DNA from: Tricharina praecox
Taxonomy: Eukaryota
Assembly: GCF_024521635.1 (NCBI RefSeq)
Contig: NW_026250403.1
Span: 2,170,001 to 2,234,000, forward strand
Direction of reading: 5' to 3'
DNA: 64,000 nt
Shown here piece after piece: positions 5,053-12,819 of this stretch. Numbering within the stretch: the stretch's first letter is position 1; each line of letters opens with the position of its first letter. The notes beneath the pieces were generated by a model. It did no database searches. It saw nothing but the letters and a program-made list of their open reading frames with translations, and was not told the origin of the DNA. The position numbers and the translations under genes were made by a program.

Positions 5053-6169
5053 TTTTGATTTTGATTTAAGCACATGTACGCTACATACATACATACCAGG
5101 CACTTTGGATTTGGGATTTTGGAGTCTGGGATTGGCGTTTGGGGCATACATTGTATTCGGGTTGTTGGAACTTGGGGGTTTTAAATGTTGATCTGCGGCG
5201 AGGCGAGGTACGTTGGAGTATTGTATTTTTTTGCGCGTGGGCGTTGGGTATATTTATATGTACAATGCTGATAATTGATATTGAGAGACTGAATCTGTCG
5301 ACAACATGGAGGATTAACGAAGATTCTTGCAAGGATGGAAGGCTTTCTGAAGATAATCACGATGGTTAATCGCAACTTCAACGGCAGACCGCAACTTGGC
5401 GTTCGTCACAAGCCTGCGACCTATCCATGCTACCACTAGCGCTTTCACGTGTTCATATTCACACGGTAGTGTAGAGTACATTTGATTGATTGATTGTTCA
5501 TACAGCATGGAACCCTAAGGTTATGGCCGATAGAGATATCTACAATACAACATTTCGACAAAGAAATTCCACCACCGAATCCATACAGAAATGACAAGCC
5601 GAATCCCTTCGCCTCGCAATATTTGAAAGTGAGCCTCTGAAGAGGTTCGGGTTGTCAGTTTTGCGCTGTAGCGGCGCGTCGTAGCCCTCCTCTTCTCCTA
5701 AAGGTACCTCCACTCGGTACTACCCTCAACATAACCAGTCTAGCGCACACGGCATGGTGCTCGAAAGGAATTGTCGTCTCGGGGTTTGCGTAGCTGTCAA
5801 GGCCGGGGCCCGAGAATAGCAGCGAAGATATTTGGATCGAAGGCGGGATTGGCAAAATGCCGGTTGTCATGGTCGACGTTGTCCTGAGCCAAGCCCTGAG
5901 CTCTCCCCCTGGAGTTCACTCTCCTCCCCGCCGTCGCCATATCGCCTGCTAAACAGGCCACCTATGGCGGGCGTATTCAGGACCTGATTAGGTGCAGGGC
6001 GCGGACACACACCCTGGACCAAACCAGGTCTCAATCAGCAACGCCGCGCCCCGCTGACATGTTACTGCGCTGTAATGATAGGTAATGCAGAGTACTGACC
6101 AGTACCACTGGCTTTCTGCTGTTAGATAGCCGTACTTTCTGGTACCGGACCCACAGTAGGGGCGGCCAG

Positions 6170-6450
6170 GGCGGGCAGGAAGCTGGGGATCATATAGGTC
6201 TGCAACCGTCAGTAATGCTCAGTAATGGTCAGTACCGAGCAGTACCGCTATCGCCGCACCGCCGCCGGATGTAGTACTGACGAGTACTAGCTGCGGCCAT
6301 GGCGGGCAGGAAGCTGGGGATGATGTAGGTCTGCAATCTTCAGTAATGCCCAGGAATTATCAGTACTGGTAGGCACAGAGCGGTACCGCTATCGCTGCAT
6401 TGCTGGGCGCAGAATTGACGACAGCTGCCTACGGCCACGGCGGGCAGGAT
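6170..6450 (+). repeat. Left subterminal tandem repeats of the TIR element (unit about 130 bp)
   Basis: GGCGGGCAGGA recurs at 6170, 6301 and 6439; TACCGCTATCGC recurs at 6243 and 6384. Confidence 0.8.
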
Positions 6451-7479
6451 CCTTTGGGCAGTACAGCTCAGGAATCGTCATTACTGCACGGTACTGAGTG
6501 GTACTGCGAATACTGTCTGATTGCGGATCGCACATGTGGTTACAGCTTCTCATCCTGGACAATGGCTCGTAGCGGGGTTATGCTCTGATAGTAGCACTTC
6601 CATACACATGGTCTTCATTTTACATGTGCGGTGGTGTTCACAGCAATATCCTAATCTGGTCGGTATTTGCCATTAATAGAACTTCATCGTATATGGCAAA
6701 TAGGTGATTTACTGGCCGACAACACAAACTCCGATACTAAACCTGCGCGAGGGCCTCAAGACTTTCATATTAGCTGTGGGAACGCTAAAACTATCATCCA
6801 ACAACTTTTGAGACGTATCCCACCAGGGCTGAAGGTGTCAGATCAATTCAGCTCTCCACAATGATAGAGAGTATCTGGTGGGCGCTGTCAAGTACTTTCC
6901 GATACCGATGTGTACCAGTCTGCACTGGATCTGTCAACATAAAAAATCGGTTGAGAAATGATGATCCTTTCGAGGGCCGGGTACCTTGTAATGCTGCCCT
7001 CGAAATACTGAGTAGTCTCGCCTGGAGACGGGAAACAGCATTCATTCTCAGCGCTAGACATGGAAAGCTGCTTGCAGCCATCCCGTTCTTGCCAAATGCA
7101 GCACCCGTCATGAATGGCGGGATATTTCATTCCCGGACGATGTTGACATAGCTGAAGAATCTTCAATAGTGGTGATGTATGCTAATATATAGTCACAGGT
7201 GCTACTACTACAGGCCAGTATGGTTGAAGGCACGTTGGCGGCAGTAAGACTGCTTAATGCCAAGCGGTACTGAGCCCACACTACGCCAAATCATGGCATG
7301 AGCTCATTCCAGGGCGCCGCCAGAGGACACTTCCTGTATGTAAGGGTTCGGTGGCACATCAGTCGTCTGTTGCAGTACTGCTAGGTACCGGCAGGTACTG
7401 AAGACTACACTGCGCTGCCATTAGAGTACAACCTGACTTCAGGACAATGTCTGAAGCCAGATCCTATACCCACCAGTAT

Positions 7480-7960
7480 TGTGTCCGACGATACGGCGAT
7501 AGCGGTAACAGTCAGTACCCAGCAGTATTGACGGTTGCGGGTTATACCACCCCCAGCTCAATGCCCGCGCCGGCCGCATGGCGTACTCGCCAGTACTGCT
7601 CCCGCTGATACGGCGATAGCGGTACCGCTCGGTACCGACCAGTACTGACAATTACGAACCTATACCGCCCCCCGTATCATAGCCGTCCGGCCGCCTGCAG
7701 TACTAGTCAGTACTGCTCCCGGCGATGCGGTGATAGCGGTACCTCCTAGTACTGCTTGGTAATGATCATTGCTGATGATTGCAGACCTATATCGTCCGCA
7801 GCTTCCTGCCCGCCCTGGCCACAACCAGTACCTGTCACTACTGCACCTGGCGGAGCGGTGATAGCAGTACTCCTCGGTACCGCTGAGTACTGAGCATTAC
7901 TGACGATTGCAGACCTGTATCATCCCCAGCTTCCTGCCCGCCCTGGCCGCCCTGGCCGCC
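7480..7960 (-). repeat. Right subterminal tandem repeats of the TIR element (unit about 117-130 bp, at least 4 copies)
   Basis: CGGYGATAGCRGTA at 7494, 7611, 7728 and 7856; CAGCTTCCTGCCCGCC at 7799 and 7927. These are the reverse complement of the left-side units. Confidence 0.8.
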
Positions 7961-10064
7961 GCTACTGTGTGTCCGGTACCAGACAGTACAGCTGTCCAAC
8001 AGCAGAAAGCCAGTGGTACCGGTCAGTACTCTGCATTACCTTTCAGTACTGCGCAGTAAAATGTGAGCGGGGCGCGGCGTTGCTGATTAAGACCTGATTA
8101 GGTGAAGGCGCGGACACGCACCCTGGACCAAACCAGGTCTTGAATATGCCTGCCATTGGTGAAACAGGCTCTCCTAGAGTGATAAAATCGATGATGATGT
8201 GCAGGGAAGCGATGGTGAGACTTCTTCAGAGGTTCGGACGTAGCACCCGTGGTGGTGCAATTTTCCGGCCAGGGACCGAGGCTCGATTGATCTCTATCGC
8301 TTCATGCTCATCGTCGTCGAATTCGTCGGTCGGGGCACTCAATCCGTGGTCGAAAAGAGTGGACATACACACCACATGAATCCTGAAGCCAAAGTGAGCG
8401 GGGCATTTGGTGTGCCAAAGCATAATCTTGGCATTTTTGGAAGGTTGGTGTGGTTGTCGGAGGTGTGTTGGTGTAGAGTACAGTGAAGAGCTGATGTTGT
8501 GAAGCCAATTAACCTGATAGTGAACTCCACCATGACTAGGACCCCCACAGAGGCCAATCGCACGTTTCAAATACAGCCCAGGGTCAGGTCAATTCCAGGT
8601 CGTCCAAAAAGATTGTGCAGTTTAGCGCCAGTTGCGGGCATACATAGGACCGGCGCCGCATCCATGAGAATTCCTAAGTCCTGACTGTAGGCAGTATTTT
8701 CTGCTTCTGCTGCGTCTTCCACGGTAGGCAGATGCACTCACGTGCCTTCGCGATGCACAGACTACCGCCTCGGGAACTTCCGTTGCACGAGTGCGATATC
8801 ATGATAATCACGTGCACGAGTTGCCAGTGATGACGTAGAGTGGGTAGCTGGAAGTATGTATTGGAGAAACTCTACCAGCAATAAGCATAGACATTATCAA
8901 CCGCGGGCCTGCGGCAGTATAATCTCCCGAGAGCAAGAAGGCTCCAATTGTGGTGCACTCTGCACGGAAGAGCTGGTTGATGGAAGGGCGTTCCACTCGT
9001 TGGCACCGTTGCTGGAAGCGGGAAAGTGCGGCAACGCGAGGCTACTCTAGGTGCTCTCTGGGACACTCTAGACTGCTGGGCTTGAGGATACTGTCGTCTA
9101 TCTGGACCTGCCAAGCGCGAGCTCCGGGCCTCAGAGCGGATCCCAGATTCTGGTCAGGTAATCCCGTCTGTGTCTCTTGCGGGCTGTAGCCTCAAAAACA
9201 GGAAGACATCCCGATACCTTGACCGTTCAGAAAATTGATCTGACAAGCAATGATCAATCCGAGATTTCCCCATCATGTGTGGGATGGAGAGTGGTTTAAT
9301 GCAAGCAATTCGTACCGAAACGGCTGTTCCCGCGTTCTAGTCAAACTCAAAATCTGGAGCATCGGCAAACAGAACTAGAGACCCAAGCTACCCAAGTTAT
9401 CTAGGCTCCTCTCGAAGAGAACTGTTGCTAGAAAATCGGAGGAGAAGGAAACGAGGCCCTAATTCGGCGTGCAAGACTATGTTTTCCGCCAATGCACGTG
9501 CTGCGAGGTGATACGGCCCTTCGGAAGTTGCAGCCCAATCCATCAAGCTTCGAAGCGGAAAAGCAGATAGTGCTGTGGACGGCACCTTCCGGCACCGTGC
9601 TTGCCTGACGGACTGATCCCATCGGCAGTAACTCTAGATTCCTACCATCGAAGACCATACATCACTACCACCTAAGTGGTCGACAGCATATGTGGATTGA
9701 GCATAGATCTATACTCCACGAGCACTGGCCAGATTCTGAATGTGCTGCGTGTGTGCAGAGTCCTACGAAGCAGCAGTAACCCTACTGCTTGGGGACCGTC
9801 CGCAAAATCATGAGGACGATCCGAAGGACTTAGGAAAACCCGGCGATAATATGGAGAGCTGGAAGTCTTTATAACCCCCACCAATCCGCCCCCAATCTCA
9901 TCCAACATCAACACATTCACTCTTCTCCTCTCATCACCTCTACAACTTTCTTTCACTTCTTACTTCAAAAGTTTTCAAAAGTTTCATACGTTTGTGTTCC
10001 CTACTCCTTCTCTCAGCATCTTCAGCCGCTAACATCTCCACAGTTTAGATACCATTTAGACAAT

Positions 10065-11774
10065 ATGCAGATGCAGATTTGCCACTCTCTCGTCCTCGCC
10101 GTCGTCGCCCTTGGCGGTCTGGCTCAGGCTGCGCCTGCTGGCGGCATCTACGCTGGTGCCGATTGCGCCCCCGCAGTCTTGCCCGTCGCTTGCGATGCTG
10201 GCGACAACATCACCGCTTCCACCGTCGTTGACACCACTGGTTGCGCCTGCCCCGTCGGTGCCTGCGGCTGTCCTGCCCGCACCGACGTCGTCGAGCCCAC
10301 CGTCACCCAGGTCGCTCCCGCCATCGTCAACCAGTCTGAGGATGTCCAGCCCGTCGACATCATCCAGCCTTACCAGGACGTCGTCCAGCCCGTCGTCGAC
10401 ACCCACATCCGCCCCGTTCACTCCGAGGTCGTCAACTCTCCCATCGTCCAGACCACCACCGAGCCTTGCTGCTCTGCTCCTGGGGCTTGCGGCTGCGGTA
10501 CCGTCGCCGGTTACGGCACTTACGCCAAGCGTCAGTGCGGATGTGCCGCTCCCATCTGCGGATGTGCCGCCCCCGTTGTTCAGGCCACCGCCTGCGACTG
10601 CCCTACCAGCCCCTGCGGCTGTCCTACCCGCGTCGATGTCGTCGAGCCCACCGTCACCCAGGTCGCTCCCGCCATCGTCAACCAGTCTGAGGATGTCCAG
10701 CCCGTCGACATCATCCAGCCTTACCAGGACGTCGTCCAGCCCGTCGTCGACACCCACATCCGCCCCGTTCACTCCGAGGTCGTCAACTCTCCCATCGTCC
10801 AGACCACCACCGAGCCTTGCTGCTCTGCTCCTGGAGCTTGCGGCTGCGGTACCGTCGCTGGTCCCGTCGCCGGCTACGCCGCCGGATACGGCACTTACGC
10901 CAAGCGGCAATGCGGATGCGGCGCTTCTAACTGCGCATGCCCCGCCCCAGTCAAGGTCGTTGAGGTCGCCGCCCCTGTCGACCGTTGTGGCTGCAACGAC
11001 GCCATCTGCTCTTGCGAGCAGGTTGACCCGTGCCCCTGCCGGGAGACCGTCTGCACCTGCGAGGAGGTCGTTTCCTGCGATGACCGCATTGGCGGTGCCG
11101 ACCGTTTCTCGTACGGATCCTACGGTGGCGTTGGTGCCGACCGTCTCTCGTACGGATCCTATGGTGGCATTGGTGCCGACCGTCTCTCGTACGGCTCCTA
11201 CCCGACCGTTGTCGGCCCGACCACCGTCTCTACCTGCCCGTGCGACGATGTCTGCACCTGCCAGGAGATCGTCTCTTGCGGCTGCGTAGACGACTGCAGC
11301 TGCGACTCGGTGATCGCGCCGGTCACCACCGTCGTCGCCGCGCCCGCCTGCGGCTGCGACGCCTACAAGGCCAAGCGCCAGTGCGACTGCGGCTGCCCCA
11401 CCCGCGCCAACACCGTGCAGCCCACCGTCGTCGAGGTCGCCCAGCCCATCGTCCACAACTCGCAGGACGTCCAGCCCGTGCAGGTCATCCAGCCCTACCA
11501 GGAGGTCGTCCAGCCCATTGTCGACGAGCACATCCAGCCCGTCCACTCCGAGGTCGTCAACTCGCCCATCGTCCAGACTACCTGCGAGCCCTGCGCTAAC
11601 GCTGGCAACGGCAACGGTTACAACGGCGTCAACGCTGTCAACGGCAACGGCTTCATCGCCGCTGACAACGGCTTCGTCGCCGCTGACAACAACGGCTACA
11701 ACGGCGACAACAACGGCGAGGTCATCGTCGACACCGACATCCAGGCCGCCGGCGACTGCGTCTGCCGCAAGTAG
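10065..11774 (+). CDS. Secreted Cys-rich repeat protein (569 aa) with three Kex2-type KR|Q sites; function unknown
   Basis: Intronless ORF with a strong C-ending codon bias. Hydrophobic N-terminus (SLVLAVVALGGLAQA) resembles a signal peptide. Three copies of a Val/Pro/Gln-rich module, many CGC/CxC motifs, YAKR|QCGC twice and KAKR|QCDC once. Pyrimidine-rich leader and T-rich trailer. Confidence 0.9.
   Translation: MQMQICHSLVLAVVALGGLAQAAPAGGIYAGADCAPAVLPVACDAGDNITASTVVDTTGCACPVGACGCPARTDVVEPTVTQVAPAIVNQSEDVQPVDIIQPYQDVVQPVVDTHIRPVHSEVVNSPIVQTTTEPCCSAPGACGCGTVAGYGTYAKRQCGCAAPICGCAAPVVQATACDCPTSPCGCPTRVDVVEPTVTQVAPAIVNQSEDVQPVDIIQPYQDVVQPVVDTHIRPVHSEVVNSPIVQTTTEPCCSAPGACGCGTVAGPVAGYAAGYGTYAKRQCGCGASNCACPAPVKVVEVAAPVDRCGCNDAICSCEQVDPCPCRETVCTCEEVVSCDDRIGGADRFSYGSYGGVGADRLSYGSYGGIGADRLSYGSYPTVVGPTTVSTCPCDDVCTCQEIVSCGCVDDCSCDSVIAPVTTVVAAPACGCDAYKAKRQCDCGCPTRANTVQPTVVEVAQPIVHNSQDVQPVQVIQPYQEVVQPIVDEHIQPVHSEVVNSPIVQTTCEPCANAGNGNGYNGVNAVNGNGFIAADNGFVAADNNGYNGDNNGEVIVDTDIQAAGDCVCRK
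10288..10860 (+). repeat. Intragenic near-identical duplication (351-bp offset)
   Basis: About 10288-10508 is nearly identical to about 10639-10859. A diverged third copy lies at about 11410-11585. Confidence 0.9.
11094..11201 (+). repeat. 3 x 39-bp coding tandem repeat (GADRxSYGSYGGx)
   Basis: GGTGCCGACCGT starts at 11094, 11133 and 11172. Confidence 0.9.
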
Positions 11775-12819
11775 AGCGGATCTGTGGGATATTACTTAGG
11801 GGGGATGATTAGAAGATAGATATGGAGTGGCTTGTGATTTTCTTGTATTTGATTATTTTTTTCCACAGAGACTTGCATACGATGTATGTTATCGTGTCTC
11901 TAGATACTCGTCTATAGAATTTGGTTCGGTTTTTGGCTTTTTAGGAAGTAACTAGAGAGAAGGGGCTGAATTCAGACAAGAACAGGATTTGTTCTATTTT
12001 CAACATGGCCTTTCTTCGTAATTTCAACATTGATCTCAGCCTTTCGGTTCTCGATTTCCCCACTACCGATAATGGCTAATGGGCGTTCACTGATAATTCA
12101 CAGTCTTCGAGACTTTGTTTTCTCTATTAGAATCTTGGGAAGATTGATCAGCCACTTGAAGGTAGTAGCATCTCCGGGAGAAGTTACAAACAGTATTCCC
12201 AAATTGTAGCAGTTCTACTTCGGTCTAACTAGTGAGAATACTTGTACCAAAATCTAGGATCGAGCACGCGCTGAGGTTTCCGACTGGGAACTCAGGGAGA
12301 GGGTGGAGAGACCGGCAGGAACGCAGGAAGCGAGGGGAAGAGGAGGAGGAGGGCGCTTAGGATGGCTGTTCCTCCTACACCCTCCGTCATGCTAGCATCT
12401 CCTGGAGAAGAGGCAAGGGTCAAGGCGGAGTGCGGAGCGGAGGGTATGAGAAGCCACATCGGACAGCTTGGTGAAGTCGGGCGGGTGGGTGTAGTGGAAA
12501 CGGAGTGTGTATTGCCATGATCTAGATAAGTCGCATGTAATCAGTGAATAGACCAAAAAAATGTGACGTTCAAGTTCCGATCTTGATTCGGTATCTCTCA
12601 AAAGTGCCATATCCAGCAGTTTCTACGCGTTTCTTTGCAGATCTGATTGTTAAAATAGAAGGGTCGATGTTGATTGCAACTAGGTATTAGGGCTAATGCC
12701 TTCGAACTAGTGGTTCACAGAATCTCACACGAGGTGGGTCGTGCGTCGATTCAACTATAAATTGCTTTCACTTCAACCCCCACTTCCACCACAACCATCC
12801 TTCACACTTCACATCTAAG

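Follow-up and report, generated by a model that had tools for sequence, protein, structure and literature searches.

In parvoviruses and poxviruses the palindromes form the physical termini of linear DNA, the flip and flop isomers occur at both ends in similar amounts, and these viruses encode or depend on a nickase or resolvase. A 2,203-bp element at positions 5959–8161 of a 64,000-nt stretch of Tricharina praecox DNA (assembly GCF_024521635.1, contig NW_026250403.1, positions 2,170,001–2,234,000 of the forward strand; this whole stretch is called the window below) is similar to these genomes in that an imperfect palindrome lies near each end, in two orientations relative to the remaining sequence. 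However, the palindrome of this element starts 22 bp inside integrated DNA, the two isomers seem to be far from equal in amount as judged by contig placement, and no nickase or resolvase was found among the open reading frames scanned. The interpretation headlining the initial annotation of the locus, flip/flop isomers of a hairpin-resolved or invertible module, is not supported in view of the internal palindrome, the 8-bp target duplication, the empty site and the skew of other termini to the left type. A one-off (or lineage-restricted) palindrome-mediated micro-inversion of the right cassette in a decayed transposon copy is considered here, with moderate confidence, to be the explanation. 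No paper joining flip-flop palindromes with transposon terminal inverted repeats (TIRs) was found in a literature search.

Inversion of inverted-repeat spacers is the second type of described event to which the locus could be compared. In the passages cited, a stretch between short inverted repeats reverses its orientation in situ without a change of length, which looks like a cluster of substitutions (PMC8604942, PMC8794818), and hairpin-associated inversions of plastid DNA represent the classic recurrent case (PMC3123225). In yeast, intermolecular template switching inverts the spacers of inverted repeats in place, and such inversions can recur and revert, as described in the corresponding part of PMC8604942. 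The inversions reported in these passages comprise 2–8 nt between perfect arms (PMC8604942, PMC8794818), whereas approximately 38 nt, including parts of an imperfect stem, would have been turned here. The site is also a functional-looking module of a transposon end, unlike the published inverted-repeat spacer inversions.

Among transposons, the element resembles Muta1 of Aedes aegypti and the MULE and P foldback elements in having long TIRs made of subterminal tandem repeats, a palindromic TIR motif and duplications of 8–9 bp, according to the excerpted description (PMC5499845). Both the subterminal repeats and the palindromic terminal motif of Muta1 affect transposase binding in that account (PMC5499845). 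The palindrome of Muta1 is described as 10 bp long and located at the very tip, whereas that of 5959–8161 is 50 bp long and located 22 bp inboard; the repeat units of Muta1 are 12 bp, in contrast to units of approximately 125 bp with motifs phased at 10 bp (PMC5499845).

The left cassette (5981–6030, plus strand, 50 nt) and the right cassette (8091–8139, plus strand, 49 nt) are in direct orientation, as originally claimed. Aligned directly, they show 47 matches, 2 mismatches and 1 gap column, vs 37 matches, 11 mismatches and 3 gap columns when one of them is inverted. Comparison of the left cassette with its own reverse complement (approximately 76% identity) gives 14 diagnostic positions; the right cassette follows the direct arrangement at 13 of these and the inverted one at a single position. 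The direct orientation is real and far beyond chance. Recomputation of the palindrome returned the values first proposed, i.e., 23-nt arms complementary at 18 of 23 positions and a 4-nt loop in the left cassette, which is the sole site of the 64-kb window reaching at least 18/23 with a loop of 3–6 nt. The orientation switches exactly at the palindrome edges, where GACCTG and CAGGTC are perfectly complementary, and the length of the cassette is preserved (50 nt on the left, 49 nt on the right).

As single-stranded DNA, the left cassette folds with −12.3 kcal/mol on the plus strand and −14.7 kcal/mol on the minus strand, and none of 200 shuffled sequences folded as well. The minus strand folds better because most of the arm mismatches become G·T pairs there. 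For both cassettes, the values range from −10.2 to −14.7 kcal/mol, with 0 or 1 of 200 shuffles as good (z from −3.4 to −5.6). An extended fold of the terminal 94 nt of the left end reaches −22.3 kcal/mol (z −3.4) with the first 7 nt unpaired; at the right end the corresponding z is −1.5, and 18 of 200 shuffles were as good. A partial complementarity of the tip to the first inner 22 bp was rejected as evidence, since it is not kept at the right end.

Independent sequences of the right end were obtained from soil metagenomes. Parts of the window occur in eight such runs (indexed by words of 31 letters), and Logan contigs were aligned from four of them, X1, X2, X3 and X5. A 240-nt contig of X1 spans 7923–8162 with no difference from the window, and a contig of X2 spanning 7362–7621 and 7749–8136 carries the same right-end arrangement, with four differences and a 9-nt gap.

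The cassettes are enclosed by inverted repeats. The left tip (5959–5980, plus strand, starting with 5'-CACC) and the right tip (8140–8161, minus strand) match as inverted sequences at 18 of 22 positions, and three of the four differences are transitions; contigs of other copies stop exactly at 5958/5959. Inside the cassettes, the left subterminal arm (6031–6520, plus strand) and the right subterminal arm (7440–8090, minus strand), which is an inverted copy of the left arm with one extra repeat unit, match at 135 of the first 150 bp, and the left end could be aligned to the reverse complement of the right end over approximately 500 bp. Inverted segments of 167 nt at 89%, 104 nt at 88% and 115 nt at 77% identity were returned by a repeat finder. 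The proposal that the outer 22 bp and the inner several hundred bp are inverted repeats is confirmed by these matches. Between the arms lies a central unique non-coding segment (6521–7439). In the 64-kb window no second copy of the element was detected, and sequences matching the cassette arms or the tip are confined to its two ends.

The element is located between 8-bp direct repeats AAACAGGC, the left copy at 5951–5958 and the right copy at 8162–8169. Contigs representing the empty site join 5950 to 8162 (X1, X2) or 5951 to 8163 (X2, X3, X5); the joints omit exactly 2211 nt, with 7–8 letters fitting either side, and they were found in all four runs aligned. The empty site is precise and contains the 8-bp target only once, confirming both the boundaries of the element and the duplication. 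The element is an integrated class II cut-and-paste TIR transposon, non-autonomous and of foldback type: it has terminal inverted repeats, a target-site duplication with a precise empty site and multiple copies at different sites, and no coding capacity was found in it.

The transposon is nested in a repeat of approximately 780 bp (5481–5958 and 8170–8470), which is multi-copy in the runs (up to 10 contigs cover it, with loose ends at 5482 and 8468). The empty sites are probably paralogous copies of this host repeat, since the flanking DNA is multi-copy. The host repeat is bounded by a 12-bp direct repeat GTGTAGAGTACA (5469–5480 and 8471–8482), has a short TTGA-type simple repeat at one end, and resembles a non-autonomous element, such as a small retroposon.

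Which of the two cassette orientations is usual in the family could be judged indirectly, from the places at which contigs of the other copies aligned. The comparison drew on part of the contig alignments, with 40 variants and 23 loose contig ends listed. At least 16 contigs with unlike flanks end at 5958/5959 (eight in X1, seven in X2 and one in X5), whereas no contig end at 8161/8162 occurs among the 23 loose ends listed. The flanks agree with the consensus only at 0.55–0.61; such poor agreement means that they differ and that other family copies sit elsewhere. Two further left-placed termini came from runs with a low share of the window, X3 (17 differences in 140 nt) and X5 (11 differences and one gap in 82 nt, with a foreign flank), and in these two runs no contig fits two places. 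Placement at the left or right end is informative because a contig consisting of the tip and cassette differs by 11–14 letters between the two placements.

The depth over the tip and cassette, calculated from boundary bins minus the portions owed to the flank and the inner arm, gave the same picture. In X1 it is approximately 73 on the left and 8–15 on the right, with window-type contigs at 8.3–8.5; in X2 it is approximately 41 on the left and 4 on the right, with window-type contigs at 4.75. Eight extra contigs of single-copy depth together with the window's own copy would give the value of approximately 73 in X1. The left cassette, with its 18/23 arms, its fold, its high depth and the 16 flank-bearing contigs, presumably has the orientation usual for the family. 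Among the contigs listed, right-type orientation was found only in the window's own contig and in one X2 variant approximately 99% identical to it. Contig placement points to left-type cassettes as the usual state at either end of the family's copies, with the right type being rare.

The other copies also show which arm of 5959–8161 has changed. Among the well-supported variants listed, they match its right arm at least at 6032, 6056, 6061, 6075 and 6127 and its left arm at least at 7997, 8042 and 8050, and they match neither arm at 6042 and 7992. Since the other copies side with one arm at most of the listed sites, the divergence of 10–18% between left and right represents, where its polarity is readable, private decay after insertion, and the inversion of the cassette can accordingly be counted among these private changes. 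Hence the copy is old and decayed.

Cassette arms were also looked for in other collections. A degenerate 19-mer, which fits three of the four cassette arms and does not fit the first arm of the right cassette, was found at 20 loci of JGI metagenome contigs, all sharing only the 19–23-nt pattern, and a 19-mer cassette arm had no match in IMG/VR and GTDB genome contigs. Two contigs of X1 match the window up to 6020, inside the left cassette, and continue with approximately 172 nt of unrelated sequence; they may come from a different family that has just the terminal 60 nt in common with this one, or represent a rearranged end.

The sequence of events could be as follows. At an end of the family, the 22-bp tip would be followed by the 50-bp quasi-palindrome and then by long subterminal arrays in which (C)AGTAC-type motifs recur with a 10-bp phase. 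In the ancestral state, the quasi-palindrome would face its tip in the same way on the left and on the right, i.e., the cassettes would be ordinary inverted repeats. In the lineage of 5959–8161 the right cassette would then have been turned around in place, the right end being the derived one, with break points in the outer stems, GACCTG and CAGGTC, which pair perfectly. Most likely, the template was switched between strands in the course of replication or repair: the polymerase would hop strands in one arm and return in the other. Features by which such a switch may be recognized are found here, namely a tract bounded by complementary arms, a preserved length and 13 of 14 asymmetric positions swapped. 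The same product could also arise if the arms recombined or if one end was copied directly to the other. Owing to the approximately 76% identity of the cassette to its own reverse complement, no more than 14 of the 50 positions change in the flip, the effect of which would be almost neutral. Of the explanations offered in the initial annotation, a one-off hairpin-mediated micro-inversion fits best and is rated as fairly probable, the other termini being skewed to the left type as judged by contig placement. On this indirect evidence, the result corresponds to the single accident that the initial annotation had listed among the refutations of its proposal.

Several observations weigh against a single private inversion. 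The yeast spacers inverted by template switching have 2–5 substituted bases and arms longer than 9 bp in the passage cited, compared with approximately 38 nt between perfect stems of 6 bp here (PMC8604942). The cassettes are 96% alike, vs 82% for the tips and 90% for the arms, which would also fit recent direct copying between the ends; the excess of similarity over the neighbouring sequence is not significant at 50 nt. The orientation of the cassette in other copies is deduced from contig placement and not from the letters of the cassette itself. Contig depth summed in a metagenome is not equal to copy number and may mix organisms, and only the ratio of left to right depth was used for this reason; the runs being metagenomes, the other copies may come from several related fungi. 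Finally, the X2 contig that lacks one 127-nt repeat unit, and that shows the 9-nt gap and four letter differences, has the right-type cassette, which means that the flip is not confined to one molecule. Being approximately 99% identical over 388 nt, this variant is most simply the same locus in another strain, and it may also be a second copy of a small subfamily.

The latter possibility leads to the alternative that survives best, a fixed subfamily asymmetry, which is regarded as unlikely. One inversion in a master copy would have given rise to a subfamily with one cassette of each orientation, maybe serving as a left/right signal for the transposase. Unequal ends are usual in several transposon families. 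The X2 contig retains the right-type cassette in spite of the missing repeat unit and the gap, the same repeat unit is missing in a contig of X5 from a different study, and both arms of 5959–8161 have C at 6042, where most other contigs have G, which places the copy in a distinguishable sub-lineage. However, a fixed asymmetry would be expected to produce equal numbers of both end types, whereas the 16 flank-bearing contigs were placed at the left-type end and none at the right-type end is among those listed, and the left depth is estimated at 5–10 times the right depth. An allele explains the X2 variant better than a paralogue does, since it is approximately 99% identical to the window's copy over 388 nt, whereas the copy's own arms are approximately 10% apart. 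The skew of the termini to the left type thus disfavours the built-in left/right asymmetry that had also been suggested for this element.

Alternatively, the quasi-palindrome could be an inversion hot spot at either end, with both isomers segregating and the orientation modulating the use of the end. Hairpin-associated small inversions do recur and revert in plastomes and in the inverted repeats of yeast, according to the sections cited (PMC3123225, PMC8604942). The stable folding of the cassette (z from −3.4 to −5.6) and the two X1 contigs breaking inside the left cassette at 6020 are consistent with such recurrent flipping. However, the right type is rare in the aligned contigs, and among the 40 variants listed no well-supported one falls within 5959–6031 or 8051–8161. 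Recurrent flipping in place is considered improbable.

An artefact of assembly or sequencing, which the initial annotation had named as a circumstance that could overturn its observation, has a very small probability. Palindromes can disturb assemblers and polymerases. However, the perfect stems here are only 6 bp, far below the 31-letter index word, and the independent contigs of X1 (7923–8162, 0 differences) and X2 (7749–8136, 4 differences) agree on the right end.

Hairpin-resolution replication of a rolling-hairpin or telomere-resolvase type, which would produce flip and flop terminal hairpins, is the least credible explanation: the imperfect palindromes near the ends in two orientations relative to their flanks provide a resemblance only, and the further folding of the left terminal 94 nt (−22.3 kcal/mol, z −3.4) leaves the first 7 nt unpaired and has no equivalent at the right end (z −1.5), whereas the palindrome lies 22 bp inside an element whose integration produced an 8-bp duplication and for which a precise empty site exists, the two isomers differ greatly in amount by contig placement (approximately 73 vs 8–15 in X1 and 41 vs 4 in X2), no gene for Rep/nickase or another transposition protein occurs in the open reading frames (ORFs) scanned in the element and the window, and hAT and MULE transposons, which have the same duplication length, form their hairpins on the DNA beside the element rather than on the element itself in the account cited (PMC5499845).

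A one-off micro-inversion of the right cassette would make the locus a clean natural case in which a large tract (approximately 38–50 nt) between palindromic borders was inverted within the end of a transposon. Events of this type resemble the flip/flop isomers of viruses, and scans that rely on sequence only could be misled by them. With the flipped copy, it could readily be tested whether transposition depends on how a near-symmetric TIR module is oriented. Recurrent flipping, if it occurred, would connect template-switch mutagenesis with the way in which transposon ends become asymmetric, provide a nuclear, transposon-borne counterpart of the plastid hairpin flip-flop and offer foldback elements a route to create or erase left/right asymmetry. 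The overall importance is modest.

The subterminal arms consist of repeat units of approximately 117–131 bp, with a 128-bp period present in two copies at 7698–7948; the units of the left arm measure approximately 120–130 bp and contain (C)AGTA(C/A) motifs. The element contains 51 GTA[C/A] cores, of which 44 are located in the two arms (18 in the left and 26 in the right), and 23 pairs of these cores are exactly 10 bp apart (9 in the left arm and 14 in the right). At 6072–6501 and 7375–8056 the cores are mostly parts of CAGTAC, AGTACT or GGTACC and form helically phased runs of 2–4 with 10-bp spacing. The density of CAGTAC is 7.3 per kb in the element vs 0.24 per kb in the remaining window, an approximately 30-fold enrichment. 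Arrays of the (C)AGTAC type are likely to be a multi-site landing pad for the transposase, and the exact 10-bp phasing suggests cooperative, helically phased transposase binding. The repeat number of the right arm is polymorphic: contigs of X2 and X5, from different studies, are without one unit (joint 7621 to 7749). The 9-nt gap of the X2 contig could be placed in the CCTGGCCGC triplet array at 7933–7960.

The family is an undescribed foldback-type element of Pezizales. As for its superfamily, duplications are predominantly 8 bp in hAT, 8–10 bp in MULE and 8 bp in Zisupton and a Dileera-lineage element in the excerpts cited (PMC5499845, PMC12730594). The hAT and Zisupton/Dileera (KDZ) elements of fungi share with 5959–8161 an 8-bp target-site duplication and 5'-CA...TG-3' termini; such termini are described for Kyakuja of the KDZ group, which has 7-bp duplications, and for the CMCT clade (PMC5499845, PMC12730594). 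The 8-bp duplication expected of a hAT transposon is found here, and so are the TIRs made of subterminal tandem repeats (units of approximately 117–131 bp) expected of MULE or P foldback elements. TIRs of approximately 500 bp are unusual for hAT, a hAT-like start is CAG or TAG in contrast to the CACC tip of this element, and the P superfamily also makes 8-bp duplications. The element may belong to the hAT, MULE, P or Zisupton-like transposons, and its transposase would decide between these candidates.

The longest stop-free frame of the element is 120 amino acids (aa). No Pfam match was obtained at E ≤ 1 for 13 ORFs of 40–120 aa from the central part of the element, and the central 120-aa ORF has no homologue among 1.84 billion representative proteins. 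A protein-database search for ORFs reading through the TIRs of other copies gave no homologue for a 76-aa ORF of the left arm or for a 41-aa stretch reading inward from the tip. Rfam gave no match at E ≤ 0.1 over 5300–8700. The Pfam scans of the window covered 114 out of 155 ORFs with a length of 110 aa or more plus seven long ORFs; among these 121 ORFs and those of the element, no transposase family was found, and no HUH nickase or telomere resolvase family was found among the 121 and the 13 element ORFs.

The window itself is fungal, since it encodes Fung_rhodopsin, Fungal_trans_2 and a PP1-type phosphatase, and one of its ORFs (557 aa) shares 93% identity with a Tricharina praecox hypothetical protein. 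A 2-kb stretch at 9834–11795, in which the 646-aa and 579-aa frames (the two that were scanned) had no Pfam match, has a G+C content of 62% and contains three overlapping long frames on both strands (646, 579 and 409 aa).

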